64,000 nt of DNA, taken from assembly GCA_051251795.1 (NCBI GenBank), contig JBPOGC010000001.1, forward strand, positions 9,207 through 73,206, given 5' to 3'. Positions 44,615-62,833 of this stretch are shown here, piece after piece. How positions within the stretch are numbered: position 1 is the stretch's first letter; the number at the start of each line of letters is the position of its first letter. The translations under genes were made by a program, and so were the position numbers. Below the pieces are notes generated by a model that worked only from the letters and a program-made list of their open reading frames with translations, did no database searches and was not told the DNA's origin. The stretch is from Luteolibacter sp. Its GTDB lineage: Bacteria > Verrucomicrobiota > Verrucomicrobiia > Verrucomicrobiales > Akkermansiaceae.

Positions 44615-45783
44615 ATTGGGGTCGATTTGTTAATTGCGATCCATCCGGTTTCGCCTTCGCTAACGACAAACTCAGCGCCAGCCGTACTCTGATACGATTT
44701 TAGCCTCTGTGACGCTGGCGTGGAATAGTTGAAATGTAGAGTCCTACAGAAATTAGCAGGTCTGTCCACGATTGCCTTAAGCACCGCGAAATCTGGATGG
44801 TTATGACCACTACCATTGGTAGAAATAAAGAAGTCTGGGCTGTCTACTAGGGTAAGTAGCTCTGGACTGGTATTGCGCGAGCTACCATGATGCGCGATCT
44901 TTACAGCGTCGTAAATTGATGGCCCGTTCGTTGCTAGTGCAGCGACAGTATCATTGGCCCAGGAGTCACCGAGAAACAGTAGGCGACGGCCTTCAACCTC
45001 TACGATTAAAGAAATCGAACTACCGTTCGTAACGGAAATGTCGGGGACATGAACTACAGATAAGTCAGCATCCGATGAGGCGAGCAATTGCTCTTTTGGA
45101 GCAACCACTTCGCGTGAGCAGAGAAACTCGAAAGCATCGTCGAGATCATTTAAAGATCCGACCCAACCCATACGCCTTACTTCCGATGTCCACCATTTCA
45201 ATAAGGCATCCAACCGAGTTTCACTAGGGCCGAGAATTGTAATTTTACTTTGGGGAAAGTTAAGTGTAATTATTCCATCCCCACCGATCGGAGTTTCTCC
45301 ATCGTGCATGTTCCATTGGTAGCCTCCCTCACACAATAATTGTGCGAGAGAGCTGCCTTGGCGTGCGCTAATCTCCTGCCCTTGGCTGTTTGCTTTTTTT
45401 GACTGTTGAAAACCTTGCTGGCATATGTCCCGCAAGAGCGCCTTATCATCTTGTCTCATCGCAGCTTTATTCCCATTCAAAGTGGCTAAACTACGGAGAC
45501 TATTGTGCAAAACCTCCCGAACGGGAATGAAGGCTGGCTCTTGGGCAGATCCATTTAGGCTAAAAAAGGATAAAAGTCCGGAAATATGATCCGCATCGAT
45601 GTGTGTCGCGACTACAAGGTCAAGTGCGTAGCCATTGGTCGCGAGATCTTCCAAATCGGATTTGATGTAACGGTGAAAAGTGTCGGCATACCCGCCATCA
45701 ATGAGAAAAGCGAATGGATCGACCGAAGCCTTGACTAGAAAGGCATCACCGTTTCTTGCTGGATAACTTTTAAGCTGAACCAT
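44611..45783 (-). CDS. avs1a: AVAST type I MBL-fold hydrolase Avs1a
   Basis: NGDAFLV, LIDGG, THIDADHISG and KIAHHGS; stop overlaps the avs1b start. Confidence 0.9.
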   Translation of the reverse strand: MVQLKSYPARNGDAFLVKASVDPFAFLIDGGYADTFHRYIKSDLEDLATNGYALDLVVATHIDADHISGLLSFFSLNGSAQEPAFIPVREVLHNSLRSLATLNGNKAAMRQDDKALLRDICQQGFQQSKKANSQGQEISARQGSSLAQLLCEGGYQWNMHDGETPIGGDGIITLNFPQSKITILGPSETRLDALLKWWTSEVRRMGWVGSLNDLDDAFEFLCSREVVAPKEQLLASSDADLSVVHVPDISVTNGSSISLIVEVEGRRLLFLGDSWANDTVAALATNGPSIYDAVKIAHHGSSRNTSPELLTLVDSPDFFISTNGSGHNHPDFAVLKAIVDRPANFCRTLHFNYSTPASQRLKSYQSTAGAEFVVSEGETGWIAINKSTPI

Positions 45784-45966
45784 GAGGATTATGCGGACTA
45801 AGGACTGAGGAAATCTGGCCTAATCGCAAGCCTGTGTCGATGGCGGGGTGGCGACGTTTATTCCTCATAGGATTTCATCCCATAGCCTTTTCGTTGTTGT
45901 GACGTTGCTATGGTCGCTGAAAGTCTTTCAACAGCGATAGATGATCATGAAATTTTCCTACACTCC

Positions 45967-46158
45967 ATGATGATCGCCGCACCTGACGATCTAAAACACG
46001 TTTTCGACGCCGCGTTTTCCGACATCCGGCAGTCATGTCGAAAGCACACGCCCGGACTGATCCTGCACAAGATCGGCACAATCACCAAGGTCTCGACCGG
46101 AACCGCGGGCGTTTGCGGCGTCGACGGTGTGAGTTTCGAAGAGATCCCAGTGATATAG
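45967..46158 (+). pseudogene. Relic resembling the N-terminus of an alternate (N-type) F1F0 ATPase alpha subunit
   Basis: LKHVFDAAFSDIRQSCRKHTPGLILHKIGTITKVSTGTAGVCGVDGVSFEEI resembles the alpha-subunit N-terminal GTITSVSTGIAxVxGLxGVxxEEL pattern, then stops. Confidence 0.5.
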
Positions 46159-46183
46159 GCCCAGCACCTAACAGCACCAAGCC

Positions 46184-46620
46184 TCACAGCACCTTCACCA
46201 GCATCCAGATCGACATTGCCATCATCATCAGGTTTTCCGTGAGGGAAATGAATCCAAGCGGCACCTCACTCCCACCGCCAACACAGGCGCACCTGAGATC
46301 ACGTTTCTCAATATAAACGGCTTTGAAAACGGAGATTGCACCGATGGTGCTGACGATCAGCGCGGCTGGTGCCGCGACCCACGTGAGAATGTCGGCAATC
46401 ATTAGGATTCCCGCTCCGGTCTCTACAGTTGATAAACGTAGGAGCAGAAAACATAGCGTCTCGTGATCAGTTCGCCTTATAGCGTCTGGTATGGGTGACG
46501 TCCGTTAGGAACGAGAAGGCGGAGACCTCAATGACGGACTGGTAGGTTTTCCCCTCACGCTCCCCTGAGGGAAGGATGTGGGCGATACAGCAATCCAGGG
46601 AATCATACCCGTTGGTGGCG
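46184..46620 (-). pseudogene. Degraded second copy of the glutaredoxin-MauE gene (23594-24328)
   Basis: Near-identical C-terminus (AVYIEKRDLRCACVGGGSEVPLGFISLTENLMM). Upstream fragments GYDSL, EGKTYQ and RRYV.SYVY are broken by stops and a deletion. Confidence 0.88.
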
Positions 46621-47009
46621 CGGGATCGGGGCATCGGTCGGCAAGGTCTGGAGACATTAACGTTCATACACCGCAGAGCTTGACTACTCCCGCATACGGC
46701 TCTGCTCGCTGTAACGGAAAGGATGGTGGGGGTGATGCTCGGATGGAGTTGGGCATTCCTGTCACCCTGCTTGGAATCTTGCGAGACATCCCGGTGCGGA
46801 AGAGCTGCTGCGAGCCGTATCTGTGAATCAGATGGATTGGTGTTGTGACTCCGATGTATAGCGTCACCATCGCGCAATTCGGACATCTGGAGTTGCCGTT
46901 GTTGGCTTCGTTCAAGAAATCCGGTTAGAGATCATAACGCCCAACATCAGCAACATCTGCCGTCAGCGATTTCACCACGTCGTTCGGTTGCGGAATATCA
47001 AATCATCCA

Positions 47010-48443
47010 ATGACGAGGAAAAATCCAGCAAGTTCCGTTCCGGCACTTCCGATAAAGTTCAGCAACCTGTTGACCGACGACGTAAACAAGCCGGTTCCCT
47101 GGATCATCGAAGACCTTATTTCGGAAGGCGAGCAGATGCTGGTTTTCGGAGCACCTAAGGTGGGCAAATCTCAATTCGTCCTCCAAATGGCCATCTCAGT
47201 TGCACTCGGCAATGATTTCCATAAGTGGCGAGCGTCTATACAGGGAGAGGGTAGGAAGGTTCTCTACGTCAATCTGGAGATCGGTGAGCGCTCATTTATG
47301 CGGCGAATTGCAGATCATGTAATCGCGGAAGCACAGTTAGGGGCGCGTCCCGATTCAAAGAAAGAGATCCCCATAGAAATGGTGGAGGGAATCAATGAAC
47401 TCATAGCAGGGAAATTGTTCTTCAGCGAAGGGATGCGCACTGTTGGAATGACCAATGATTTGATCGACGAGATTCTCAAAGCCGAAGATAAGGGGGGGAA
47501 GGTCGCGGCTCATCGATTCGTGGACAAATGGCACGCGAGCCTCGACGAAATGAAACCGGATCTCATTATCTTCGACACGCTTTCGAAAATGCACTCGCTT
47601 GATGAGCGAAATAACAATGAGATCCAAGGGGTTCTATCCGTGATCCGCAAGATCTCAACAGTTCAGTCGGGCGACATTCCGGACGAGCGCAAAGAACTGG
47701 CTCATGTAATTGTCCATCACTCGCGTAAAAGTTCCGAGAACAGCATAAGCGGAGGAGAACTGTCGCTGGACTCGATCCGGGGAGGGTCGTCAATTCGGGC
47801 AGAGGCGGATGTCATCGTCGGCATATTTGCACGAAAGGATAAGTACGTGGTTCAAGCAGGTAAGACAATGCCTCGCGATGTTTTGATCGAAGCTCGAAAT
47901 ATTGAAGGGGACAGGGTCGATTTTCAATTCGACGGCGTTCGGTTCAGATTGACTACTGCACAGGATGTGAAGGAAGCAAAAGAGGGACCGATTACGCAAA
48001 TCCGTGGTATCTTCGAAGAGTTGGGGGTAAGAGGTATATCAAGCGGGGTTTTAGCCACCAAACTGGCCGCAAGATTGAATCCCGAATATAAGGAAGAAAT
48101 CAAACCGAACAGCAGCAAATATCAGGAGAGCAAAAGATACCTGACTAAGTTTGCTAAGGAGGGTAAGCATCTCGAACTGATCACGAAGAAGCACCACGGT
48201 GATTTGATCCGGAGGTCGCCTGTTCAAGGCAAGAGAACCACGGCCTACACCTTCTACTGGATCCGGGATACGTCGGGTTGGCTGGAAATTGAATCCATCA
48301 GCAACGCCATGGCAGAAATGGAGAAGGATGCTGCCGAAGACCTGGATTCAGCAGGCAAGAATCCTGCAACTAGGGGGAAATCAGGCAAAGGGAAAAAACC
48401 TTCGAAAAAGGATACTGACAAACCAAGCTCGAAACGGGCGTAA
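47010..48443 (+). CDS. AAA_25/RepA-like SF4 helicase
   Basis: GAPKVGKS, VLYVNLE, LIIFDTLSKMH, IVHHSRK and RGGSSI motifs. Confidence 0.85.
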   Translation: MTRKNPASSVPALPIKFSNLLTDDVNKPVPWIIEDLISEGEQMLVFGAPKVGKSQFVLQMAISVALGNDFHKWRASIQGEGRKVLYVNLEIGERSFMRRIADHVIAEAQLGARPDSKKEIPIEMVEGINELIAGKLFFSEGMRTVGMTNDLIDEILKAEDKGGKVAAHRFVDKWHASLDEMKPDLIIFDTLSKMHSLDERNNNEIQGVLSVIRKISTVQSGDIPDERKELAHVIVHHSRKSSENSISGGELSLDSIRGGSSIRAEADVIVGIFARKDKYVVQAGKTMPRDVLIEARNIEGDRVDFQFDGVRFRLTTAQDVKEAKEGPITQIRGIFEELGVRGISSGVLATKLAARLNPEYKEEIKPNSSKYQESKRYLTKFAKEGKHLELITKKHHGDLIRRSPVQGKRTTAYTFYWIRDTSGWLEIESISNAMAEMEKDAAEDLDSAGKNPATRGKSGKGKKPSKKDTDKPSSKRA

Positions 48444-49422
48444 AAACAACTGCAGTCCCCTTCCCTATAGAAATACTGTAGTAGTTAAAAATCCCCCCGT
48501 GTAAAATTAAAATACTCCCCCCTTGGCACTGGCTCACCAAGTGGCCAGGCAAAAATTACTTTCTCAGGATTCGTTAGAAATGGCTTAGCCCTCTGGGCGA
48601 ATTATCCCCGGTTGCGGAGCTGGTGAAGCACCTCTCTTTGAAAGTGACTCCACACCTCCGCTTTCAAAAGCCCGGTTTCCGGGCTTCGAAACAATCGGCT
48701 GCTGCTTCCGGATTCCCATTCGGCAGCGCGCCAGATTGGATGATTCCCGACAATCCAAATTGTCGTGGCTGCAGGGAAGTCCCCTGCGCTTCCGTGAGAT
48801 CCGGATCAGCGTGGTTTACAACTCGATCATGCAACTGGAAAATCACGGAGAATCGGCTCCGCCAGCGCCAATATCCGTTAAGGAGGGCGCGGATCGGATC
48901 CGGATGGCAGTTCTTGCCAGACCGGAAATTCGGAGTGGTGGATGAAAAGATCGCAAAGTGCACTTACCGTTCCTATCGAAATCTGTTCTCTAACCACACC
49001 GAGTCCCAAAAGGTATGAATGCTTTATGGAAAAGGAAGAAATGATTGTTCCATCAGCGGCTCCACCTTCACTTGCCGAAGTACCGAGGAAAAGTGGACTA
49101 TTCCCGGAAAACTGAGGCTGCAGGATCGAGCGACTGCGCACGAATCTTGCGAATTCTGACTTACCCCTTCCGGGACAGGGAACCGAATCCGTGCAGCTTC
49201 CCGAATTCTTTTGGGCGTCAAGGGCCGAGGCCGTCCTCACCCCCCTTTGTCCTGACATGCATGGCTGCCTCTTGGAAGAGAAGAAGCGATCGTCCCCTTA
49301 CGGCTGCGCTTTCGCTTGCGACCCTGCTTCTACCAAACCTTTTGAGATCCAGAGAGTTTAATTGCCCGTTCCAAAATTTGGATGGGCGGCTGTTTGGAAA
49401 TTAACCAAAACAAAATATAAAA

Positions 49423-50472
49423 ATGAAAAGAATATATCATTACACCCGTTCCAGCCTTGTGGAAGACATCTTGGAAGCTGGGGAAATAAAGCCTGCAACT
49501 GCTTTTACCAAACCATGGGAACTGCCCGTTGTATGGCTGTCGAATGCAAAAGAGTGGGAACACGCCGCCTCTACAACGGATACCACAACAAAGAGTTTGT
49601 GGCCATTTGAAGCGATTGCTCAAGAAGATCCGTTAGTGAGGTTTGAAATTGATCCCTTGGCAGTGAACACAATTTCCCAGCCTAAGGTTCGGCAAATCCT
49701 AAAAACATGGGAATCATTTTCCTCTTCCCTAGGGGACGAGGCGAAGTCGCAAAGTGCGGATCCTCATCAGTGGATGGCAGTAAAGGGGAATATTCCGCTT
49801 TCAGCGTGCGTTCGAATAGAGATTGCAACGTCCGCAAATCCTTGGAATTGGAGTAAGATTTCTTTCAAATCTCCGTCCAACTGCACCACTGGAAATTCAA
49901 CGGGAGATGACGGATTTCAATCTCGAGAACATGAAAAACCTGCAACGGATGACAAAAAGACAGCGTCTTCTCATTCGGGCACGAGCGCGACCTGTGGAAA
50001 TCTAGTACACTTGACCCTAAATACCGGTCATAGTTTCACTCGACCACTGGCGATATTGAGACCCGTTGATCTCCGCTTACTGACTCCCATAGTTTACGAC
50101 GGAGGTGGGTTTATACCGAACTTCTCCCCTTGGAGGTGCGTTATCGCACAAGAAGATGGTATCGCCACTTTTGACATTCGCAGAAATGTCGAAGACGTCG
50201 TTACATTTAACATGGTCGCATGGACTATTCAGGGTGCACAGAAGGGCAAAAAAATGTTAAAAGACCTATATACTTCTATGTTGAGTACCCTTTCGGACTC
50301 AGGTGCTATCACGACTCCAGAAATGCCAGAGATACCGGATAAACTACCTTGGCTAGCGACACTAATTCTTCCTACGGCTCCTCTTTATGCTAAGTCATCA
50401 GATCTGAAATGGATGGCCGATTTTGAGGGGTGTCTAGCTAGCACAATCATCATTCATCATCTCAACGGATAA
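49423..50472 (+). CDS. Two-domain hypothetical protein; N-terminus may have an ADP-ribosyltransferase-like fold
   Basis: YHYT...ILEAGEIKP...VVWLS...WE pattern, a Ser/Thr-rich linker and a second domain. Confidence 0.6.
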   Translation: MKRIYHYTRSSLVEDILEAGEIKPATAFTKPWELPVVWLSNAKEWEHAASTTDTTTKSLWPFEAIAQEDPLVRFEIDPLAVNTISQPKVRQILKTWESFSSSLGDEAKSQSADPHQWMAVKGNIPLSACVRIEIATSANPWNWSKISFKSPSNCTTGNSTGDDGFQSREHEKPATDDKKTASSHSGTSATCGNLVHLTLNTGHSFTRPLAILRPVDLRLLTPIVYDGGGFIPNFSPWRCVIAQEDGIATFDIRRNVEDVVTFNMVAWTIQGAQKGKKMLKDLYTSMLSTLSDSGAITTPEMPEIPDKLPWLATLILPTAPLYAKSSDLKWMADFEGCLASTIIIHHLNG

Positions 50473-50535
50473 CTCTGAATACATTTAAATTTCAGAGACA
50501 TACTGTATCAGGAACTTAATGCTCCTGAGCTTCAT

Positions 50536-50589
50536 GGCCGGAAACCGAAACTCAATATCTCCGATCTTAGAGGTTTTCGGTTTCCGGCC
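50536..50589. repeat. Perfect 15-bp inverted repeat with 24-nt spacer
   Basis: GGCCGGAAACCGAAA (50536-50550) pairs with TTTCGGTTTCCGGCC (50575-50589). Confidence 0.9.
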
Positions 50590-51233
50590 TAACATTCCTT
50601 CATAAAAAAGCCAGAATAAGGCCATCTTGTAATTTCTAGTAGAAGGCTAATTAGAAGAATCGAACTTTGACTTGCCGGATCTAGAAAAGTTCGCGCGATA
50701 CGCTACCAGTAGTGCGGAGGAAGTATGACAGCCTTCCCAAAATTGAAGGATCCGAGCTGTGTCATATCGTGCAATCGGGCTTCCCTCCTTCAAGATTCCT
50801 GAAGATAGGAAGCAGTGCCGGCCACAGGTAACTTCTATTAGATAAAGTTCAGAATCGAAGTTTAGATAAATACATCATTTTCATATCAACAATCCAGCTC
50901 ATAAGTATGTCATAGAGACCTAAACCATTCGGTGCGGTAACGTAACCAAAACACTTCAAGGTTTTACAATCAGGCAGCAGTTCTGATACCCTATCAGCTT
51001 CCTTAGTTGAAGGTCTCCGAATCTTCCAATTTGACAGTAGTGTTTTCTTCGGGTTATTATACAAACTAGGAAATCTACGCCAACCCCTTGCACGGGGAGA
51101 CCGGTAATGGATTCTATGCCACCCATCATATTAACTAAATTAATAAATAATGAAACATCTACCTCCATCAAATAAAAGAATCAAAGGGGATAATATATCA
51201 TCTAGCGCCAATCCTAGAGAAACTATCCCAGCA

Positions 51234-51815
51234 ATGAATCCATCCCTTGCAAAAGAGCTGATTGCGGCGGCCGAGGTGGGTCACATACACCTTATCGAAT
51301 GGTTTCTGGTAGCTCGGTTATTGGATGCAGACCTATGCGGAGAAATTCTGTCTGCAGCATCACACAAAGGTAATATCCAAATTGTACGCCTACTCCTTAA
51401 ACATGGCTGTGAGGTGCAGTTTGACGACAATCGTCCTTTGTTTTTAGCCCAAACCGGTGGATCTTTGGCGATTATTCGACTACTACTTTCCAATGGGGCG
51501 AGAAGCAATTTCTCTCACACTTCGACAGCGGCTCAAGATGGGAATCACCTTTTTCTTGGATTGCTGATGCCAACTACAACTTGGAGCTATGATGAATTGG
51601 ATCAATTATTGGGTATTGCGGGCGCTACCGCCGATGCCACCGGCTGCATCAGGTGTATACAAACTGTAATCCGGCATTGTTCAACAGATCATCTTCTTGA
51701 GTTACTAACGAAAAAGGATGTTCTTGAGTATGAAGAAAATCCAGGGCTCGAAATCGTACAAGTTCTAGCGCACGAGAAATTACGGTTTCGGCGATACACT
51801 CCGGATCCGTTTTAG
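51234..51815 (+). CDS. Ankyrin-repeat protein
   Basis: AASHKGNIQIVRLLLKHG and LFLAQTGGSLAIIRLLLSNGA. Confidence 0.75.
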   Translation: MNPSLAKELIAAAEVGHIHLIEWFLVARLLDADLCGEILSAASHKGNIQIVRLLLKHGCEVQFDDNRPLFLAQTGGSLAIIRLLLSNGARSNFSHTSTAAQDGNHLFLGLLMPTTTWSYDELDQLLGIAGATADATGCIRCIQTVIRHCSTDHLLELLTKKDVLEYEENPGLEIVQVLAHEKLRFRRYTPDPF

Positions 51816-52065
51816 TCCCCACCATCTTTGACCCAACCGTCAAGCTCTTCGCTTCCCACGCCAATCTTCCAACCTATGACGATCTGCAACGACTGATCGG
51901 CAGTGGACGGTTTCTGCTGAGCCACGGCTCCGAAAGTGGAATAAACGTCGCCAGCAAAAAGATCCACGATCTGATCCGACGTGTCTGCCGTTGAATCGAT
52001 TCCAACTACGCAACCAGCACGATATGGAAATCACCGCATCTTGCTACAAATATTGAAGATTGATG

Positions 52066-53427
52066 TCATGCCGAATTTTCTTGAAGAAAACCATTCATCC
52101 CAAGGGTTTCATAGCAATTCGCTACATCTCCCGTTGTAAGATCAAACCTGCAGTTTTTCTCCAAAGCTTCTGGCAGCACTTCGTATTTGGCCAATTTCTC
52201 AAGTCCATGTTCAGTGAGATAGAACCCACCGCGTTCTTCATTTGAGAGAAGGTAAGTTTCGTTCCCCAGATGATCTCTTCCTGCTGGGATCACAAGGTAG
52301 GAGTAACCGTCCAATCCGGTCACACTTGTTTCCCACCACGTTTCCTGTTCAACCAATTTTCGGATCAGACGTCGCTGTCGCCAGACCCACTGGCGATTCA
52401 GCTTAGGTGAGAGGTGATGTATTTTGGCGAATTTGCCTACAGCACGCCTCCACGCCGTAGTGGTAGGAGTTATTAACGTTAGTTTTCCTACGCTTTGCCA
52501 GGCCCGTTCTGGCAGGACATTTTTAGGTCGACTCAGTACTCGTGCACCTTTTGGAATTGGGGTTCCTTCATCCCTAGATTGGCTAAGTGTTCGACTGTAA
52601 TTCCACGCCATATAAGCTGCACTCCTTAGAATTGCGGCAATACCTGAGGCAGCTCGGGATCGTGAAATTCCTATTCCCAACTTTGAACTTCGAACGGTCG
52701 AAATAATCCGGTCGATGAGCGATTTTTCCATCCTAGCTGATCTCGGATATTTGCTCCACGCAAGGAGGTGAACGTGTAGACGTCCTTCGTTTGATGAATC
52801 TGGATGATATGCCACAACCTCGACGCTTTCAAAATCAGCTCTGTAAAGTTGGTTTCCTGTGAAGTTTTTGAGCATTTTTCTAATCTCCTTGTAGTTGAAG
52901 TCCCCCGCAAAGGTTAGAGTGATGAAATGAACTCTTTTCATCTTACCGAGATTCAATTGGAGTTCTTGGTAGAATTGAAATGCCCGCCTATCCCAGTTCC
53001 GGTTGTTTGGTAGGCAAATGGCCACCGAAAGTTTTTGCCTTGCTGCCATAACCAGCGCCTTGAGATGCCAAAAGTAAGGCCGAAGTATCTGTTTTGCTTC
53101 TTCACTACCTCCTCGACGTATTTGTCCAAGATATTTCGAGGCTTTTTCTCTAATCTCCCTTAAAACCATTTGTCCATTTGGCAGACGGGGAGAAAGCTTC
53201 ATGGCTAGTTCTCGACATAATATCCTCCAATCTTTTGAGTCAGTTGTTTTCCTTTTAGTAGACAAGGGAGCCACGTCGTTAAATAGGTCTTTGAATCGGA
53301 GCCAGTCCCATCGTTGAGAGTCTGATTCAAAACAAAGAGCACCTCTTCCGCTGGCATCGAATTTAATGTTCCGAAAAGGTATTGGGGGTCGAGATCGGAG
53401 AGGGGCCTCTATATTTTTCGTTATCAT
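52066..53427 (-). CDS. HUH-family rolling-circle Rep-like endonuclease
   Basis: Motif I HFITLTF, motif II GRLHVHLL and motif III-like AAYMAWNY, in canonical order. Confidence 0.7.
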   Translation of the reverse strand: MITKNIEAPLRSRPPIPFRNIKFDASGRGALCFESDSQRWDWLRFKDLFNDVAPLSTKRKTTDSKDWRILCRELAMKLSPRLPNGQMVLREIREKASKYLGQIRRGGSEEAKQILRPYFWHLKALVMAARQKLSVAICLPNNRNWDRRAFQFYQELQLNLGKMKRVHFITLTFAGDFNYKEIRKMLKNFTGNQLYRADFESVEVVAYHPDSSNEGRLHVHLLAWSKYPRSARMEKSLIDRIISTVRSSKLGIGISRSRAASGIAAILRSAAYMAWNYSRTLSQSRDEGTPIPKGARVLSRPKNVLPERAWQSVGKLTLITPTTTAWRRAVGKFAKIHHLSPKLNRQWVWRQRRLIRKLVEQETWWETSVTGLDGYSYLVIPAGRDHLGNETYLLSNEERGGFYLTEHGLEKLAKYEVLPEALEKNCRFDLTTGDVANCYETLGMNGFLQENSA

Positions 53428-53594
53428 ATATTTTTTACCAATTGGTTTATTTCACTTTATTATGTTTTTAAGGAATAACAAACAGTTTTCTGCGGTCGTA
53501 GTCGCGTAGCAAAATTACACTCTTACCATGTGCGACTAGGAGGTTTGCACTTCAAGTTGGTATGTTACTTTTAGACATTAAGGCCACCGTCTCA

Positions 53595-54731
53595 TCATTC
53601 TCGGATTGGTTTCACGTCGGCGTGAGCTGAACGCCCAGAGCACGAAAGCCCCAGAGCTTTCGCCTTCTTGCCAAGCAGAATGGCGCCTTGCGCACGTCGG
53701 GGCGTCCACCATTTAGAGGATCTGTCATCAATATATTGCAGGAACCTGAGTTTGTCGGCCGGTATGTTGCGGGTATGGGCCAGAAAGGTTTCGCGGGAAT
53801 AGTTTTCCCATATCTTGCTCTTGCCCGCCCCAGAGACCGTCGCCAGTTGATCAGCTTCCGCCCCAAGGCCAGCATTCCGCAGGGCAGAAAGCGTTCTAAC
53901 AAAAGATTCACCCCTTACATTGATGGGTTCCGCCCACACGTGTTCGCATTTTTTGACGCGAATCGCTGCACACACCTCACGTGAGAAGCGGTCGTAATCT
54001 GCTTGGGGAAGACTAGGGCAAATCATCCCGAAGGTGCGAAACCCGTTGTCTTGTAGCCAGTGAAGAGAATCAATCCGCTTTGAAACTAGAGCCGTGCCTT
54101 TTTCGATTGCTCTCGCCACCCGGTCATCAATGGTGCCGGTGGAAAATCCAAATATCAGCCGATGGTAATGGTGAGCCGGAATCATGCAGTCAGCTACCAG
54201 TTTGTGCAAGAGGTTGCTTTTCGAGAGCAGTCGGATCTGCCACCCTGTATGATCGAGAATTAGATTGCACATTTCGGCTGTTTCTCGAAGCAGCTCCATG
54301 TTCGCAGCAACATCGACGGTAGTGGAGGAGTAAACGACCCGGTTGTCATCATCATCTAAGAAAATTCTCCCTCCACTCCGGTTCAAAAGCTGGATCCTGA
54401 GGAGCTCGACAGCATTCCTCCTACGGATAACCCCCTCTTCAAACCTAAGCGGCTTGCCAGTCTTATCCTCATAGGAATTGAGAATTGCCGGTGCGAGAAA
54501 GCGCTGCATGGATCCTACATAGCAAAACGAGCAGCTGTAGCCACATGCGTCGCCCGGGTTAAAGATCAATCCATCACAGAGGAGTTTCTCCCGGAATGCA
54601 TCATTTCTGATATTGAGAACGGTTTTAGCATCTCGGTAGAGAACGGGTTTACCGTTCATTGTGGAGCGAGATTCCAAATTGGAGCCAGGGTGCGGAGGTT
54701 TTTGTATATTGTGGTCTAGTTGTGTATTCAT
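53595..54731 (-). CDS. Radical SAM protein (spore photoproduct lyase-like group)
   Basis: CGYSCSFCY (CxxxCxxC), YSSTTVD and LLSKS. Confidence 0.85.
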   Translation of the reverse strand: MNTQLDHNIQKPPHPGSNLESRSTMNGKPVLYRDAKTVLNIRNDAFREKLLCDGLIFNPGDACGYSCSFCYVGSMQRFLAPAILNSYEDKTGKPLRFEEGVIRRRNAVELLRIQLLNRSGGRIFLDDDDNRVVYSSTTVDVAANMELLRETAEMCNLILDHTGWQIRLLSKSNLLHKLVADCMIPAHHYHRLIFGFSTGTIDDRVARAIEKGTALVSKRIDSLHWLQDNGFRTFGMICPSLPQADYDRFSREVCAAIRVKKCEHVWAEPINVRGESFVRTLSALRNAGLGAEADQLATVSGAGKSKIWENYSRETFLAHTRNIPADKLRFLQYIDDRSSKWWTPRRAQGAILLGKKAKALGLSCSGRSAHADVKPIRE

Positions 54732-55133
54732 GGTATGTTTATTGGTGTTTATGTTGTTGTTAGAAATTCATGGGTAATTGGCGTGATTTGAAATCTTCGG
54801 ATCATCAAAGGCATGGTTCGGAGCCAAAATGTTATTGAACCCGAAACCACTGAAGGTATGGATGCCCAGTGTCCAAAAAAGCTCGATAGAGTGTTTCTTT
54901 GCGCTAATTGTCGCAGGCGTTAAGGGAGCTCTCCTCCGGAAGTAATTGCGACATCACCACTTCCGCCAAACCGATTTTGCCAACTCCATCGAGATTATGG
55001 TAATTCCTCAAATCTCCGGGTTGCCAGGGTGAGAAGTCTCTGAGTAACTGATGAGGAGAACATGCAGCATCACTTCTCGACTTTGTGTCCTTCATAAAAC
55101 AAGTAGTACCGAAGCGCCGAAAAGCGCCAAAAG

Positions 55134-55155
55134 AGTCCCTAACAATTTAGGGACT
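55134..55155. promoter_or_regulatory. Palindrome in a divergent intergenic region
   Basis: AGTCCCTAA-CAAT-TTAGGGACT, preceded by AAGCGCC direct repeats. Confidence 0.4.
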
Positions 55156-55318
55156 TTCATTCTAGTGATGAGATTCGCCTCTCTGGCGTGTGAATGGCCG
55201 ATGACTTCCCTCTTGCTACGGGGAAGGGAATTGGCGAGCGTATTTTCCGAGTTAAGCTTGCCGAGTAGTTTTTGGAGATACCACCCGGACAATTAGCTGC
55301 GATTTAAAGAACCATCGG

Positions 55319-56134
55319 ATGAACCCCCGCGATTCTCATACGGACTACGTCCCTTCCAAGTTTACGGGCAAACTGCAAGATGCAATCAAATCGATGGAAA
55401 TATGGTTGATCTCTTGGAGAAAGTCGGTCGGAGGTGGAAACCCTTGCGAGACCAACCGTCATCTGGATGGTTTTTTACTCTCTTCTTACGAGGGTTACCG
55501 CCTTATGGCCATTGGTCAGGGTAACCATGGTGATGTTGCGAAAGACATCGCCCAGACCTGTGTCTTACAATTGATCAAACGGAATCAGCTAGGCTTTCGT
55601 CCCCCTCTTGTCCCTAGAAGTATTGATTCCCTGCTGGGAGATGAACCCTTGTCTGATGACGAATCGGATTCAGGAACTCCGCTTGCTGCTTATCTATATG
55701 GAGTTTTGTCCAGGGGTGTGGGTGCTCAGACCCGAACACACCGAATGCGAGCGAATCGCACTCGTCCAATTGAAGCTATTGAGCTAGATGAGAAAGAATC
55801 AGATCCGTCAGAGGTCAGTAGCTACTCTCCTCGAAGGCCCGACAGTGTCATAAGGAACGTCAGCGCAGTGCAAAACCTGGAATTTGCGATGCGGATCCAT
55901 GACGACTACCTGAACACAACAACCTACAAGGGTTCCACGCTCCGAGTGGTCTTCGCAGACTGGACCCCGATGGGGGAGTGGGCGGGACGATGTAGCAAGG
56001 AAGATCGTCCAAAGGCCATACCAACGCGCACACTACAACGTCATGTTTCAACTATTAAGAACCTAATCCGAGGGGCAAAAAAGACGAACCGAAGACAGAT
56101 CGAGACGGAAAATCAAACCGATAAGGATCTATAG
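55319..56134 (+). CDS. Divergent ECF sigma-like protein
   Basis: Region-2-like DVAKDIAQTCVLQL...LAAYLYGVLSR and C-terminal helix PTRTLQRHVSTIKNLI. Confidence 0.45.
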   Translation: MNPRDSHTDYVPSKFTGKLQDAIKSMEIWLISWRKSVGGGNPCETNRHLDGFLLSSYEGYRLMAIGQGNHGDVAKDIAQTCVLQLIKRNQLGFRPPLVPRSIDSLLGDEPLSDDESDSGTPLAAYLYGVLSRGVGAQTRTHRMRANRTRPIEAIELDEKESDPSEVSSYSPRRPDSVIRNVSAVQNLEFAMRIHDDYLNTTTYKGSTLRVVFADWTPMGEWAGRCSKEDRPKAIPTRTLQRHVSTIKNLIRGAKKTNRRQIETENQTDKDL

Positions 56135-56698
56135 AAAGAAACAAGCAACCTGCTTATCTACGGAAGAAGATTGATTTCATCAAACCGGTGGACAGGGCGT
56201 AATCTCCAGCGGGTTTGGAATATAATTTGAGCGGGGGAGCCCCCCTGATAGCCTGTCTTTCTGGCCTCTGAAAAACTTTTTTTCGGAGGTGCCAGGCGGG
56301 GGTCAAGGGGGGCTGGGACACAGCTCCAAGTATATTCCATGAGCCGTGGAATGTCCTCGCTTCTACGGGGCGTTGCGGGGTGTCCCCGCTGTGATGGGAG
56401 TGGGCAACAACGTGCCCGCGTGGGAAGACCCCTCTTCCCAGCCAAAATTTCTTAAGTTATTGCTGAGAACGACTAAGAGATGGCACGCATTGGACATCTG
56501 TATTCCAAGACAAACCTAATTGAATGCGACTCCGAAACGCTAGTGCTCTCAATCGGAAATTCACACGCTGCCCGAATATCTCACCGACTCTAGTGGTACA
56601 CGAGTCATCAAACTCAAAATCTAAATAACAGCGCGAATCTTCTCGGTCTAGAATAGTTCTGGAGGAATTCGTCGAAACTCCTAAGCTAGCGTCCAGCG

Positions 56699-58552
56699 AT
56701 GTGGACAGACACCGAAACTACCGATGACCTTCTCAATTTTTCCATCATCGCGCAAACTGCTGCGCAGTTGATCAAGGATTCTGATTCTGCGCCTTTGTCG
56801 ATCGGAGTTTCAGGAAACTGGGGAACTGGAAAGTCTTCTCTGGTGAAGATGATTGGCGAGAAACTCAAAGAGGACGAGGCTGACAAGAGTCGGTTTGTCT
56901 TTCTGGAATTCAATGCCTGGCTATATCAAGGTTACGACGATGCCAGAATGGCATTGCTTCAATCTGTTTCAGACTGCCTTCTGGAAGAGACTCATCGACG
57001 AAAGACAAACGTTGAGAAGGCTACGGAGTTCGCGAAGAGGATCAACTGGTTAAAAATTGGAAAACTTTTGGCACCAGCCGCAGCAGGAGCCGTGATAGGT
57101 GGAACAGTGGCCGGACCCATTGGGGCGGTTGTGGGCGCAGCGCAAGGTCTGGCAAAAAAAGGAGCGTCAGCCACTTCTGAGGATTACGACAAGGTAAGCG
57201 AAGCTTGCGGATCCTTGGGCACGGATCTAACGGGAATTCTCGCAGAAAAAAAGGGTATATCTTTGCCAAAAGAAATCGACGGGATTCGAAAAGCGTTTGA
57301 AGAGCTCCTTAGGGAAATGGACATCACTCTGGTCGTGCTGGTGGATGATTTGGATCGGTGCCTACCCGATACCGCAATTTCGACATTGGAAGCCATGAGG
57401 CTTTTGCTGTTGCTTCCTCGGACTGCTTTCATAATTGCTGCTGATGAAGAGATGATTCGCCATGCAGTCCGGCATCACTTTGACGGGATCGATATAGGCG
57501 AGGATCTAGTAACCAGCTATTTCGACAAGCTCATCCAAATACCTCTGCGGGTTCCCAGGTTAGGTCACGCCGAGGTAAAAGGATACCTGATACTACTTTT
57601 TGCGCAATTGGAGGTGCGGAGGAATAAGCTAACTGAGAAAGAATACGAAAAAGCCAAAGAGGCTATTCTGAAATCCGTAAAAGAGTCTTGGGGATCAGGT
57701 CTGACCAGAGAGGCTATGGGCACCGCTTTCTCAGGGCACGAGGTGATGAAACCACTGATCGGTCTAGCGGATCAGATTGCTGGTCTTCTCACGACCGCAA
57801 ACCAAATTGCCGGAAATCCTAGGTTGATCAAACGCTTCCTCAACGATCTCAACATCCGGAAAACCGTAGCTGATGCTGAAGGGATGTCATTGGCGTATGA
57901 AGCTCTTTTGAAATTACAGCTCTTCGAGCGGTGCGTTACCCCCGCAGCTTTTGAATTCTTGGTTTCGGAGTCAAGTAAGAGTGAGGAAGGGAAGCCGAGC
58001 TTTTTGGCAAAGCTGGAACTGATGTTGGCAGATGGGAAAGACTATGTAGAACCTGACGAGAGTTGGAAGGATCCGTTCATTGAAACTTGGATGAAACTAC
58101 ATCCTCCGCTAGGTGATCTAGATCTCAGGCCAATTCTCAATCTTAGCAGAACGCAGGTAAGTGCGACTGTAAGCTACGACAAGCTTAGTAGCCAAGCACT
58201 GGAAGTTATTGAAAACATCGTTGAGTGCAAGGATGTAGAGCCGTTTATTGTAAAAAGGGTGCGCGAGTTGACTGAAGCCGAAGCGGAACAAATTTTGGTC
58301 AGGCTATCGAGAAAAGCTCGCGGCGAGCAATTTTCAACTCCATCGATACTTCGCATAATGAATGTCACCGAGGCCTACCCCGGCCTTGGAAGCAACTTGG
58401 CCACATTGCTTGCGGAAATACCGGCAAAGGGAAGGAAGGCACCACTAATTCCACACCTTAAGGGCAAGCCATGGGCTAAAGAAATTATGCGTAAATGGGG
58501 GGATGATCCAAGAACTCCGAATCCGGCCAGAAAAGCGATCAAAGCTAATTAA
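56699..58552 (+). CDS. qatA: Qat system KAP-family P-loop NTPase
   Basis: MWTDTET start, GNWGTGKS, LVDDLDRCLP, YFDKLIQIP and GNPRLIKRF. Confidence 0.92.
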   Translation: MWTDTETTDDLLNFSIIAQTAAQLIKDSDSAPLSIGVSGNWGTGKSSLVKMIGEKLKEDEADKSRFVFLEFNAWLYQGYDDARMALLQSVSDCLLEETHRRKTNVEKATEFAKRINWLKIGKLLAPAAAGAVIGGTVAGPIGAVVGAAQGLAKKGASATSEDYDKVSEACGSLGTDLTGILAEKKGISLPKEIDGIRKAFEELLREMDITLVVLVDDLDRCLPDTAISTLEAMRLLLLLPRTAFIIAADEEMIRHAVRHHFDGIDIGEDLVTSYFDKLIQIPLRVPRLGHAEVKGYLILLFAQLEVRRNKLTEKEYEKAKEAILKSVKESWGSGLTREAMGTAFSGHEVMKPLIGLADQIAGLLTTANQIAGNPRLIKRFLNDLNIRKTVADAEGMSLAYEALLKLQLFERCVTPAAFEFLVSESSKSEEGKPSFLAKLELMLADGKDYVEPDESWKDPFIETWMKLHPPLGDLDLRPILNLSRTQVSATVSYDKLSSQALEVIENIVECKDVEPFIVKRVRELTEAEAEQILVRLSRKARGEQFSTPSILRIMNVTEAYPGLGSNLATLLAEIPAKGRKAPLIPHLKGKPWAKEIMRKWGDDPRTPNPARKAIKAN

Positions 58553-58554
58553 TC

Positions 58555-59412
58555 ATGGGTACGTCAGCTTCAAGTAAAGGTCCGAAATCTGGAGTATCGT
58601 TTGATCCTCCGTGGCTTGATGACGACGGAGGATTAGGACCAGTTAAGTCGGTAGGCGGAGAACCAGACGGTTCTCAAACTCCGGAAAAAGGGAAAACTGA
58701 AGACAATCTAAGTCCCCCCTCGGGTTCTTCAATCGCGCCTCCTTCACGCTTTTCAAATGCACGAAGAAATCTCGGGAAGTTTGCTCGGGATAGAAACGGA
58801 AAGTCCGGGTTTAAAAAGGCTGCCGGTCACTATTCTAAGACAGGAATGGGAGGATCGGGTCGGCTCGCGAGCCGGATGAAGTATTCGACAGCTACCGGTG
58901 CCAGACTGGCAGGCTTTCTAAGCTCTGCGAGTTCAGGAACTGATACAACAGTCACCACTTGGGTCAAAGACATTGTTGACCGAGGGATTAGCGGCCAGGA
59001 ACTTATAGATGCAATCACCCGTCACGTAGCTCCAAATGGAGGTAGCAAGGAGGAGGCGTCCAGCTCTGATTCGATGAATCGAGCCCTCGCAGAATTTTAC
59101 GAAAAGAATCCGGATTCTGATCTTCTAAGTCTTGACGAAAATGAGGTTAGAGAAGTCACGGAAAATTTCATGGCGAACGAGGCGTGTAGTCGACTTACGA
59201 ATGATATTGGACAGGTTCTTGAAGGGGAAAAAATATCCCTGAGAGAATCCCTATCGATTCTGAGCGAAATGCGGGAATACTTGAGAGCGGATTTATCCGT
59301 CCAAATTAAAGAGCTTTGGATCAAAGCTGCCAATCCAACTCATTCGCAACTAGATCGGCTTTTACAAAGTTCGATTCAAAGAACATTTGAAATCTACGAA
59401 GGAGAAATATGA
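58555..59412 (+). CDS. qatB: Qat system associated protein
   Basis: MGTSASSKGP...PPWL N-terminus and position between qatA and qatC. Confidence 0.88.
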   Translation: MGTSASSKGPKSGVSFDPPWLDDDGGLGPVKSVGGEPDGSQTPEKGKTEDNLSPPSGSSIAPPSRFSNARRNLGKFARDRNGKSGFKKAAGHYSKTGMGGSGRLASRMKYSTATGARLAGFLSSASSGTDTTVTTWVKDIVDRGISGQELIDAITRHVAPNGGSKEEASSSDSMNRALAEFYEKNPDSDLLSLDENEVREVTENFMANEACSRLTNDIGQVLEGEKISLRESLSILSEMREYLRADLSVQIKELWIKAANPTHSQLDRLLQSSIQRTFEIYEGEI

Positions 59413-60731
59413 TCAGATATGTTTGCTGTCCGGTTGGGTCTATCCCCGAGGTTTGTCCGCCGGGTGTAGAGTATATTTCTTTATACAAAACTGGAGCACT
59501 GGCTCGGTTCGAGGTGGGTGACGTCGCTCTATCCCTATTGTCGGACATTCGTAACTCCGGGATTAGGGGATCAGTGGAAGCTTGGGACTTCTGTTCAATC
59601 GCCATGGCTGTGGCTGCGATTGATGAATCAGTTTCGAGGATTGATACTGCTGACGGGTGGACGCGTGTATTGAGGTGTGAAATCCATCTGGTGGAACCAC
59701 TGATTTGGCAAAATCAGGTTCGACAGTTGGAAGAGACCCTCAGGTTCTTAACAGGTGATTTTTGGAAGATCTCGCTCGTGAACGGCGGGGAACCTTTACC
59801 TGTCCCGAGAAAGACTGTTAAACGACACGGCAGTTGCGTGTCCCTCTTGTCTGGAGGTGTCGATAGCTTGGTTGGAGCGATCGATTTATGTCGTTCCGGT
59901 GAAACCCCAATTCTCGTCTCAAAAATTGTTCGTGGGGATTCAGACTTTCAATCGGAGATAGCAGATGCCTTAGTCATTAAAGAAAATCATATCCAGTGGG
60001 GTTTCAACAGCCGTCCCACATCGAAAAAAGAAGGTTCGACTAGAGCGCGTTCAATTATTTTCCTCGCTTATGCGGCATTCGTGGCTTCGTCGCTAAGAAC
60101 AGGAACTAAGGGTAAAGCTCGGGTACCATTGTATGTTCCTGAGAATGGATTCATCAGCCTGAATCTGCCACTGACACCGCTACGACGAGGAAGCTTGAGT
60201 ACTAAAACGACTCACCCTTGCTATTTGAAAGGTCTTCAGGAAATGTGGGATGCAGTAGGAATACCTGTTACTATCGAATCTCCATTCGATTACAGATTCA
60301 AAACGAAAGGAGAAATGCTTGCCGACTGCATTGATCAACAGACCTTGATTAACCTTATCGGAAAATCGACCAGTTGTGGCCGATACGGGGTATACAATCA
60401 GACCCATTGTGGCAGATGCGTGCCTTGTCTTGTTCGACGTTCAGCATTCTTGAGAGCCGGGCTCAAAGATTCGACAGAAACCTCAATTTACAAAGGCAAC
60501 GAATGTTCATACGTCTTTCAAAACATCCTGACTGCCTCAAAGGAAGAATCTGCCAAAGATATTCGTGCTGCCGGCATCGCCTGCCTCCGGGTCGAAACGA
60601 AAGGAATTGAAAATTTCATCGGTGGAGAGCTTTCATTTGCACCGGATTCAGATCGAAAGCGGTATTCAGGAGTGGTTGGACGGGGCTTAGCTGAAATCGG
60701 AATATTTTTGAGGCAACACGGAGTCTTATGA
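59409..60731 (+). CDS. qatC: Qat system QueC-like protein
   Basis: LLSGGVDS, PENGFISLN, KTTHP and SC...HCGRCVPC. Confidence 0.92.
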   Translation: MIRYVCCPVGSIPEVCPPGVEYISLYKTGALARFEVGDVALSLLSDIRNSGIRGSVEAWDFCSIAMAVAAIDESVSRIDTADGWTRVLRCEIHLVEPLIWQNQVRQLEETLRFLTGDFWKISLVNGGEPLPVPRKTVKRHGSCVSLLSGGVDSLVGAIDLCRSGETPILVSKIVRGDSDFQSEIADALVIKENHIQWGFNSRPTSKKEGSTRARSIIFLAYAAFVASSLRTGTKGKARVPLYVPENGFISLNLPLTPLRRGSLSTKTTHPCYLKGLQEMWDAVGIPVTIESPFDYRFKTKGEMLADCIDQQTLINLIGKSTSCGRYGVYNQTHCGRCVPCLVRRSAFLRAGLKDSTETSIYKGNECSYVFQNILTASKEESAKDIRAAGIACLRVETKGIENFIGGELSFAPDSDRKRYSGVVGRGLAEIGIFLRQHGVL

Positions 60732-61468
60732 TCGATTTCCATTCCCATCTCGACCTCTATACTGATGCCATATCGGTAGCGCGTGAGACCTCGCAAAGAA
60801 ATCGCTTTACGTTGGCCGTCACTACAAGTCCAAAAGCTTGGGTTGCGACCTCTCGGATCTTGGGAGCGTATCCCAACATCAAAATCGGACTCGGTTTGCA
60901 CCCAGAAATCGTCGAAGAAAAGGCAGCAGAGCGGGATCTTTTGATCGATTACATTCGCAATGCCGAGTTTGTCGGTGAGACTGGACTGGACGGGTCAAAA
61001 CGATTCAGGAGCAGTTTCGAACTCCAACGTTCAATCTTTACTTCCCTCTTGAGAGAATGCACTGCCCAAGGAGGGAGAATTATAAGTATCCATAGCCGTA
61101 GTGCTGCAACTCAAGTAATTGACCTCTTGAACACCTATCCAGACGTCGGTATCCCAGTCCTCCACTGGTTTTCTGGATCTGAATCTGAGTTAAAAAGAGC
61201 GATAGATCGGGGGTGTTGGTTTAGTGTCGGTCCGGCTATGAGCTGTAGCGCCTCGGGAAGGAAGATTCTGAGACTACTTCCCTTAGATCGCATTCTTCCT
61301 GAAAGTGACGGTCCTTTTGCCGTGGTCGGGAAAAGACCCATCATGCCATGGGCCGCAATCTCAGTGTCTGCCGAAATAGCGAGGTGTAGAAATTTAGAGG
61401 TAGGCGAAGTAGAAGATCAGTTTCTGGAGAACGCAAATAAGATCCTGAAGCAAAGCAAAAGCTTATAA
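60728..61468 (+). CDS. qatD: Qat system TatD-family nuclease
   Basis: DFHSHLD, GLHP, VGETGLDG, SIHSR, LHWF and LPESD. Confidence 0.92.
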   Translation: MIDFHSHLDLYTDAISVARETSQRNRFTLAVTTSPKAWVATSRILGAYPNIKIGLGLHPEIVEEKAAERDLLIDYIRNAEFVGETGLDGSKRFRSSFELQRSIFTSLLRECTAQGGRIISIHSRSAATQVIDLLNTYPDVGIPVLHWFSGSESELKRAIDRGCWFSVGPAMSCSASGRKILRLLPLDRILPESDGPFAVVGKRPIMPWAAISVSAEIARCRNLEVGEVEDQFLENANKILKQSKSL

Positions 61469-62831: not shown

Positions 62832-62833
62832 AT

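Follow-up and report, generated by a model that had tools for sequence, protein, structure and literature searches.

A conserved backbone block in a tRNA-integrating island of Luteolibacter and its putative rolling-circle-type module

Introduction

How can genes that look like the replication core of a mobile element stand together without any integrase or conjugation gene in view? The question is raised by a block of six open reading frames (ORFs) located at positions 47010-56134 of a 64,000-nucleotide stretch from Luteolibacter sp. (Verrucomicrobiota; GenBank assembly GCA_051251795.1). This whole stretch, here called the window, corresponds to C1 9207-73206, C1 being the 75.7-kb contig JBPOGC010000001.1, and coordinates given without "C1" are window positions. 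The block codes for an AAA_25 (RepA-type) helicase, a Rep-like HUH protein, a radical SAM protein, an ankyrin-repeat protein and two orphans. A preliminary description, made from the sequence alone, suggested that it may be the replication and regulation core of an undescribed integrative or satellite element. The six ORFs are real and intact at the coordinates given below, and we consider it probable, with moderate confidence, that the block is part of the conserved backbone of an integrative mobilizable island with an undescribed module of the rolling-circle type.

An integrative mobilizable island at a tRNA-Cys gene

The lack of integrase and conjugation genes noted in the preliminary description is correct inside the window, but on the contig an integrase and a relaxase gene are found 0.6-4.9 kb to the left of window base 1, at the tRNA-distal end of the island. 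The integrase had seemed missing because the window ends before it. Extending along the contig, as that description had suggested, we found a tyrosine integrase of 394 aa (C1 4318-5502, after trkH) and a perfect 53-bp direct repeat of the 3' end of a tRNA-Cys gene (C1 4194-4246 and C1 75592-75644). The tRNA-Cys itself lies to the right of the window on the minus strand (C1 75593-75667). Since these repeats bound both ends, the island is 71.4 kb long. We compared three genomes of the same genus, in which synteny ends at the trkH stop (C1 4162). In the closest of them, G008, the 53-mer appears only once, in its tRNA-Cys, and G008 therefore represents the empty site. The integrase is weak in Pfam; it shows homology (E 3e-24) to a protein of 443 aa scoring above the Phage_integrase threshold. 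The relaxase is a MobA/VirD2 protein of 281 aa (C1 7775-8620) with a Relaxase domain at 39.2 bits, over a cut-off of 24.6.

Profile scans of the large ORFs of the island, in which the mating-pore families were not searched individually, recognized no type IV secretion system genes and no complete mating-pore or coupling apparatus, and no VirD4-type coupling protein (PF02534) was found in the metagenome-assembled genome (MAG), which is 94.7% complete. Judged by its gene content and ends, with a site-specific recombinase, att repeats at a conserved target and a relaxase, the island is an integrative mobilizable element (IME) inserted in the 3' end of tRNA-Cys by a tyrosine integrase. The att repeats, the integrase and the empty site in a relative thus agree with the integrative element first proposed. 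The idea of a phage satellite finds no support, as we found no relatives in IMG/VR, INPHARED or PLSDB and no capsid or terminase among the annotated ORFs; packaging or capsid-interference genes like those of phage-inducible chromosomal islands were not seen among them either.

Two further features were found at the island ends. In G008 (L032 7097-10780; loci of other genomes and metagenomes carry L numbers), about 3.7 kb with three ORFs lie between trkH and tRNA-Cys. This stretch is absent from the Luteolibacter genome analyzed here, where attL begins 32 bp past trkH. Besides, a 17-bp perfect direct repeat is located inside both ends of the island (C1 4279-4295 and C1 75467-75483), at distances of 33 bp (attL) and 109 bp (attR), and may represent arm sites of the integrase.

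A rare family of Rep-class HUH proteins

The central gene of our reading is located at 52066-53427 on the minus strand and codes for a 453-aa protein that motifs and model identify as a Rep-class HUH endonuclease with two conserved tyrosines. Its motifs, H167-F-x-T-x-T172 (HFxTLT), H218-x-H220 and Y272...N276-Y277, are invariant in 20 homologues. In the AF2 model (pLDDT 81.5) the predicted topology is β-α-β-β-α-β-α, with strands at residues 165-173, 199-207, 217-225 and 252-261 and helices at 179-196, 231-247 and 263-282. Read along this predicted fold, the order is β(motif I)-α-β-β(HUH)-α-β-α(Tyr), which is that of Rep proteins and not the permuted order of relaxases. Motif I, the HUH motif and a C-terminal tyrosine on a β-α-β-β-α-β core are what defines the Rep class of the HUH endonuclease superfamily. 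The invariant motifs together with the modeled topology confirm the Rep-like HUH gene of the preliminary description.

A Foldseek search of BFVD with the model gave 45 matches at E<=1e-3, and the named ones were replication initiators/VP4 of Microviridae (E 4e-5 to 1e-3, TM about 0.2-0.4 across 130-160 residues). At the sequence level there was a weak likeness to PF23343 (REP_ORF2-G2P; 18.8 bits, E 0.002), below the gathering cut-off of 27.8, which we take as a resemblance only. Searching the PDB by sequence gave nothing useful for the HUH profile, for the helicase or for the radical SAM protein.

The family is small. It amounts to 28 clusters in 5.8 billion proteins and 34 representatives in 1.84 billion (1.84e9), and appears in 6 of ~186,000 species genomes and in 16 metagenome loci. 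All named sources are Verrucomicrobiota. It was not found in 40 relatives of the host, PLSDB, INPHARED or IMG/VR, and tblastn gave no match to any phage record. On this distribution, the 453-aa protein appears to be the founding member of a rare family, so far of Verrucomicrobiota only. One variant, P0014 (717 aa, 12 member sequences), has the full HUH domain fused to a C-terminal calcineurin-like metallophosphoesterase. This esterase domain is not close to the metallophosphoesterase of the island (E 0.27). We also considered the HUH protein as the integrase, as it sits at the usual integrase place by the tRNA. In every bounded island, however, it is a tyrosine integrase that stands at the far att repeat, and the idea was rejected for this reason.

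A nucleotide-frozen site inside the HUH gene

The clue to a possible cis site inside this gene came from blastn, which gave 90-94% identity within HUH genes whose proteins share about 50%. The similarity is located at 53231-53269 (minus strand), in codons ~55-68, and consists of the site CCCTTGTCTACTAAAAGGAAAACAACTGACTCAAA, with AAACAACTGACTCAA as its core (53235-53249, minus strand). We compared the codons of 19 HUH genes in pairs with the same amino acid. At codons 55-68 the identical-codon fraction was 0.95-0.97, against 0.40 +/- 0.067 (maximum 0.63) in 377 windows elsewhere in the gene and 0.36-0.42 at the HUH catalytic motifs. There is one copy of the site per locus, and its variants, one of which is ACACAAGTGTCTCAA, follow the subclades of the HUH protein. 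The site is less structured than shuffled sequence and is unstructured as single-stranded DNA. Protein A of phiX174 cuts inside gene A, and its origin is conserved DNA in the initiator's own gene. Because the nucleotide-level selection in this initiator gene resembles phiX174 gene A, we predict that the frozen ~35-nt site is a candidate nick site or origin of the HUH protein.

The helicase and two structured non-coding regions

The first gene of the block (47010-48443, plus strand) codes for a P-loop helicase of 477 aa with a RecA fold of the RepA/DnaB-like kind. The call of a RepA/AAA_25 helicase made at the outset is sustained by Pfam (AAA_25, 1.6e-23). It has the Walker A motif GAPKVGKS, a weak DnaB_C match, and a C-terminal extension of ~170 aa without domain match that ends in a Lys-rich tail. 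Matches to primase/helicase families of PHROG range from 1e-12 to 1e-20, and PLSDB plasmids gave one weak match only. Homologues with 68-73% identity are found in L018 and L019 among the same backbone genes, and one with 38% identity adjoins the HUH gene in L052, L053 and L061.

Directly 3' of the helicase gene begins NC1 (48444-~48990), a hairpin-rich conserved non-coding region and a candidate origin or cis element. Its first ~120 nt contain TGTAGTAGT..C6..AATTAAAAAA..C6-TGG and an imperfect hairpin. NC1 can be aligned with L018 and L019 along ~550 nt, where long blocks are invariant and the indels do not come in multiples of 3, and the first ~120 nt recur 3' of the helicase with 38% identity in L052, L053 and L061 (nhmmer 1.7e-6). 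In L019 (8973-9382) the 3' part of NC1 has two further tandem copies downstream of the helicase (nhmmer 2e-9 and 8e-26) that resemble large iteron-like units. A repeat scan of 45700-56800 in the window detected no iterons and only one perfect 15-bp hairpin (50536-50589). A replicon of the RSF1010/IncQ type finds no support here, the neighbors of the helicase having no RepC or primase match and the scanned region no iterons.

NC2 (56190-56460, plus strand) is a GC-rich multi-hairpin non-coding element of ~270 nt, a candidate non-coding RNA or single-strand DNA element, that is also present in five backbone loci (L004, L006, L012, L018 and L019). In its alignment 92.9% of the pair cells are paired, compared with 40-58% when the partners are slid. 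Compensatory change affects 14 of 71 pairs, against 1-4 with slid partners, and none of 500 shuffles reached the observed value, figures that come from four sequences only and from a structure derived from those same sequences. Judging from the G-U pairs, it is the plus strand that folds. The 3' domain of NC2, GGGGCGTTGCGGGG..CCCCGC..ATGGGG followed by a hairpin and GGGGAA..TTCCCC, also appears in six other Verrucomicrobiota genomes (L038-L044), with a different 5' domain and near RadC/M78-peptidase genes. This domain may belong to a wider undescribed family of structured elements tied to mobile DNA. Rfam gave no match for the window, NC1, NC2 or the NC2 relatives.

Recurrence of the block and layout of related islands

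We have searched other genomes and metagenomes for the same set of genes, the check that the preliminary description had proposed with the warning that its idea would fall if they never co-occurred. The set does recur. A diverged version with HUH, AAA_25, radical SAM, ankyrin and o349-like genes (o349 being one of the orphans) is found within ~12 kb in L052, L053 and L061, from three metagenome samples. Their identities to the proteins of the window are 45% for HUH, 38% for the AAA_25 helicase (a divergent neighbor), 57% for radical SAM, 27% for ankyrin and 26% for the o349-like protein. That linkage has been kept despite such divergence argues for a functional module. Five loci have the radical SAM gene at no more than 10 kb from HUH. 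It is linked to HUH in L006, L007, L012 and L052, and L018 and L052 show its linkage to AAA_25. The helicase genes of L018 and L019 are accompanied by metallophosphoesterase, helix-turn-helix (HTH) and ATPase genes, by a single-stranded DNA-binding protein (SSB), by a radical SAM or a DUF5131 protein, and by two small ORFs that our island also has at its tRNA end. HUH-type and AAA_25-type loci are linked by the metallophosphoesterase, HTH and AAA-like ATPase genes and by NC2.

Gene order is less constant. The order in the window (52066-56134) is o271(<-) rSAM(->) HUH(->), where o271 is the second orphan and rSAM the radical SAM gene, and in L012 (8816-12903) it is cyclically permuted to HUH(->) o271(<-) rSAM(->), with the o271 homologue between HUH and radical SAM. 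In L006 radical SAM comes directly after HUH. The DUF5131 protein (L019, L010, L011, L057) and the SplB-like radical SAM protein (L018 and the window) occupy the same position of backbones that are collinear in other respects, as if they were interchangeable.

The position of HUH is more regular. In five loci beyond this island it is the first or second gene past the 3' end of a tRNA and reads away from it, the adjacent genes being tRNA-Phe (L010, L017, L058), tRNA-Val (L014) and tRNA-Met (L059/L060). We could delimit an island of 14 kb in L010 (tRNA-Phe, 51-bp att repeat), one of 47 kb in L017 (tRNA-Phe, 35 bp) and one of 11.6 kb in L014 (tRNA-Val, 16 bp). All three have a tyrosine integrase just inside the far repeat, as in the island studied here. 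What lies between HUH and the integrase varies: type I restriction-modification (RM) with SIR2, MvaI RM, BREX, DISARM-like, AbiE, Bil-like, Avs1 and Qat systems. By these comparisons HUH behaves as backbone and the defense genes as cargo.

The smallest of these islands (L014 8969-20642) reads tRNA-Val, a small serine resolvase, HUH, the conserved unknowns F14 and F15, a MvaI/BcnI RM system, ArdC, the integrase and the repeat. F14 and F15 also appear in L010, and L014 can be described as a minimal member of the family. Between tRNA-Phe and HUH, L010 (9632-10000) and L017 (9720-10000) show a terminator-like hairpin followed by the direct repeat TGTCCGCC-N3-TGTCCGCC. The TGTCCGCC repeats are absent from the other HUH loci and are not a general motif.

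The remaining genes of the block and the cargo

The radical SAM protein appears to be SplB-like, has 378 aa (53595-54731, minus strand) and carries CxxxCxxC at C63/C67/C70. It matches Pfam Radical_SAM at 3.8e-4 (21.1 bits, with a cut-off of 29.5), the NCBIfam model rSAM_mob_pairB at 1.3e-9 and the Rv2578c and PA0069 families, all of NCBIfam far under the cut-offs, and phrog_13321 at 1e-12. It has no sequence match in the PDB. Given the motif, the sub-threshold SplB-like profiles and phrog_13321, this early call probably holds. The ankyrin call is confirmed (221 aa, 51150-51815, plus strand; Ank_2, 1.1e-10), and its gene has an Ank_2 counterpart with 27% identity in the diverged module (L052/L061). 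Two other calls could not be confirmed. The gene described as ADP-ribosyltransferase (ART)-like, o349, is an orphan of 349 aa (49423-50472, plus strand) with no Pfam match even at E<=5, none in NCBIfam or PADLOC and no meaningful one in PHROG. Relatives were found for its C-terminal half only (residues 172-343 against ORFs of L007 and L052, 26-32% identity). The gene taken for an ECF-like sigma factor, o271, is an all-helical orphan of 271 aa (55319-56134, plus strand) that forms six clusters in 5.8e9 proteins and has no Pfam match at E<=5. A sigma or regulatory role finds no support. Its best fold match in the PDB was RpoE (5uxx_C) at E 0.45 and probability 0.47, from a model with a pLDDT of only 65, and a model match at this level is not evidence.

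The spacers of the block measure 167-1226 bp. They are long, as originally described, and two of them hold conserved structured non-coding sequence. Two short stretches of the spacers are probable gene remnants. The stretch 49231-49361 is probably what remains of the 5' end of a DUF5131 gene (blastn, 74% identity to the DUF5131 start of L019), and 51915-52031 resembles part of a DUF3800-like gene of L006 and is probably a remnant in the spacer.

The block is flanked by two known defense systems. One is AVAST type 1 (38873-45783, minus strand), with Avs1b of 1913 aa and the metallo-beta-lactamase Avs1a of 390 aa (PADLOC, 1827 bits and 6.7e-144). The other is a QatABCD operon (56699-61468, plus strand; PADLOC, QatA 1.9e-123, QatB 5.8e-30, QatC 8.1e-90, QatD 9.7e-79). 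A HEPN/PLD defense system is also among the cargo, and metal efflux genes are found in the first 36 kb of the window. The defense and metal cargo anticipated in the preliminary description is therefore real, with Avs1, QatABCD, HEPN/PLD and metal-resistance genes inside a bounded island.

Towards the tRNA there are three minus-strand genes identified by Pfam: an AAA ATPase (61860-62837), an HTH protein of 218 aa (62834-63490) and a metallophosphoesterase that starts at 63589 and is cut by the window end (whole gene, C1 72795-73658). The same trio is present in L006 with 65-73% identity, and in L018 and L019 the genes for the metallophosphoesterase and the HTH protein recur beside an AAA-like gene. 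By sequence comparison the trio is conserved backbone at the tRNA-proximal end. We tried it as a known defense system and rejected this, with no specific PADLOC match. Its AAA gene gave weak generic matches to the IetA models (E 5.8e-6 to 7e-4) and the other two genes none.

A proposed mechanism and its alternatives

In the mechanism that we propose by analogy with phiX174, the HUH protein would be an active Rep-class nickase that cuts one strand at the ~35-nt frozen site in its own gene and stays joined to the 5' end through a tyrosine. From the nick the excised circle would be copied in rolling-circle fashion, and the protein may also hand the single strand to a conjugation machine, like the dual Rep/relaxases of integrative conjugative elements (ICEs). 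The AAA_25 protein would likely be an element-encoded helicase or a second initiator, and NC1, at the 3' end of its gene, its likely cis site. The radical SAM and ankyrin proteins and the orphans would be accessory partners. Of the replication and regulation core first imagined, we infer the replication role for the module; regulation has no support.

Several observations weigh against this. Around the frozen site there is no hairpin or iteron, typical of many origins of rolling-circle replication (RCR), and a k-mer search detected no motif common to the regions upstream or downstream of HUH. The freeze could also stem from a different signal that overlaps the gene, for instance an internal start, a site for a regulator or the target of an antisense RNA. 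By its profile matches the HUH protein is only a weak neighbor of a known Rep family (PF23343, below the cut-off), and the PDB fold search with its model returned generic ferredoxin-like folds only. HUH and AAA_25 appear together in only 2 of ~19 distinct HUH loci; six other HUH-bearing genomes lack the AAA_25 helicase, and the two are therefore not an obligate pair. In two helicase loci no HUH was seen within 13-19 kb. Finally, this island has a canonical relaxase, so a transfer role of HUH is not required here. A broader version of our proposal is less probable: HUH would represent a new Rep/relaxase family with its origin or nick site in its own coding sequence, and with AAA_25, the SplB-like radical SAM protein and NC1/NC2 it would form a self-contained module for processing single-stranded DNA. 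The module would define a Verrucomicrobiota-wide class of tRNA-integrating vectors of defense and metal-resistance cargo, the radical SAM protein acting on single-stranded DNA and NC2 being a single-strand origin or promoter.

The HUH protein might instead be mainly a non-canonical relaxase, the frozen site being the nick site of an oriT, with mobilization by a helper and no vegetative replication. The islands of L014 (11.6 kb) and L010 (14 kb) have HUH and an integrase with no recognizable relaxase, L014 has ArdC, and elsewhere HUH has neighbors that suggest transfer or establishment (SSB, RadC, ArdC, ParA, DUF3150 and M78 peptidase). Moreover, in most streptococcal IMEs the putative relaxase is an RCR-initiator-like protein (PMC5704250). 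We consider this unlikely as the main role: this island already has its MobA/VirD2 relaxase, the MAG yielded no VirD4-type coupling protein, and the recurrent link to a helicase with its cis region speaks more for replication. One role does not exclude the other. Another view, quite improbable in our opinion, sees in the block a mosaic of decaying pieces left by several elements, which today would have no function in common. Low coding density, spacers of up to 1.2 kb, the DUF5131-like and DUF3800-like remnants, the GC content shift at ~36.5 kb and the varying order and strand of the genes, with HUH/o271/radical SAM permuted in L012, would all fit such decay. Yet none of the six ORFs is disrupted and HUH keeps invariant catalytic residues. 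Ongoing selection is evident from the synonymous freeze and from the two structured non-coding regions, and another lineage has kept the same gene set at 26-57% identity.

The location between Avs1 and Qat, and homologues beside BREX, DISARM-like, type I RM with SIR2, AbiE and Bil-like systems, could also suggest that HUH, radical SAM and o271, perhaps with the ankyrin protein and the helicase, are an undescribed anti-phage defense system. We give this little credence, as PADLOC returned only marginal matches below threshold for the genes of the block (helicase, mad8 E 0.0043; ankyrin, PDC-M72A E 7.7e-05), HUH keeps its place and orientation at the att/tRNA end while the defense genes vary, as backbone does, and a cis-acting site within the gene is expected of a replicon function and not of an effector. 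A rolling-circle transposon of the IS91/ISCR/Helitron kind, with HUH as transposase, is hardly credible. Two conserved tyrosines and a position at one end of a variable cargo region would suit it, and there is an IS91 copy near HUH in L008. Nevertheless, we found no Y2_Tnp or Zn_Tnp_IS91 match, a single HUH copy per genome and one frozen site per locus, and direct repeats of 16-53 bp derived from tRNAs that, with a tyrosine integrase, are the signature of site-specific recombination. A conserved backbone with a rolling-circle-type module is the explanation that we keep.

Comparison with known systems

The analysis defines a family of tRNA-integrating islands in Verrucomicrobiota, with their bounds and a division between backbone and cargo (Avs1, Qat, BREX, DISARM-like, RM, metal efflux). 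In the literature searched we found no description of mobile elements of this phylum. It also provides three testable objects: a new family of putative HUH nickases with a predicted 35-nt target in their own gene, a helicase beside a conserved candidate cis region, and a ~270-nt element supported by covariation. If our reading is true, the nickase and its site could be used as a compact pair of origin and initiator in genetic tools for a tool-poor phylum, and the streptococcal picture of "Rep as relaxase" would extend to Gram-negative environmental bacteria.

How new is the element? IncQ plasmids carry both the HUH enzyme MobA and the helicase RepA. The preliminary statement that HUH enzymes and RepA helicases usually belong to different replicon classes was hence too strong, the more so as IMEs and islands with RepA/RepC have already been described (GISul2, IncP islands; PMC5704250). 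The same review covers IMEs whose proteins resemble RCR initiators (Rep_2, PHA00330, Viral_Rep) and ICE relaxases with a second role as Rep (PMC5704250). The element as such is an IME, a known kind. What seems undescribed, as far as we have found, is the HUH family, the gene-internal site, the HUH/AAA_25/radical SAM/ankyrin set and the two non-coding elements.

The streptococcal IMEs are similar in having an integrase, att repeats in a tRNA or conserved gene, variable cargo, no mating-pore genes and an HUH protein of the Rep class akin to the replication initiators of phages. This island differs in its host phylum, in an HUH family without curated profile, and in having a canonical relaxase too. 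Its integrase is tRNA-distal and its HUH gene proximal, the cis site would lie within the rep gene, and the module includes an AAA_25 helicase, a radical SAM protein and two structured non-coding regions.

With protein A of phiX174 and VP4 of Microviridae the HUH protein shares the order of motif I, HUH and a helix with two tyrosines and, as in phiX174, a conserved DNA site in the initiator's own gene. It may also resemble them in structure (Foldseek, E 4e-5 to 1e-3). However, identity is 13-23% over ~140 residues, the tyrosines are Y-x4-Y here and Y-x3-Y there, and our protein has large extra N- and C-terminal domains. Its gene is part of an island in the chromosome, and neither IMG/VR nor INPHARED yielded relatives.

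An AAA_25-family helicase of the RepA type and a MobA-type relaxase on a mobilizable element are also found in IncQ (RSF1010) and in the RepA/RepC islands. In contrast to IncQ, no RepC-like iteron binder or RepB primase was recognized here, and the helicase has 477 aa with an extra C-terminal part. As proposed, the module would resemble ICEBs1 NicK and Tn916 Orf20 (MobT) with PcrA and HelP, where one nickase serves rolling-circle maintenance and transfer and a helicase is needed (PMC5704250, PMC3542172). MobT is a member of the Rep_trans family and works with the superfamily 1 helicase PcrA of the host. In our island the candidate helicase, of the RecA-fold AAA_25 type, is encoded by the element itself, and genes for conjugation were not recognized.

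The tycheposons of Prochlorococcus (bioRxiv 10.1101/2020.12.28.424599) are alike in their tRNA integration by tyrosine recombinases, in their cargo and helicase/primase genes, and in building genomic islands. They are mostly of 10-20 kb and have no HUH hallmark, whereas the Luteolibacter island reaches 71 kb, carries a relaxase and draws on a different gene pool.

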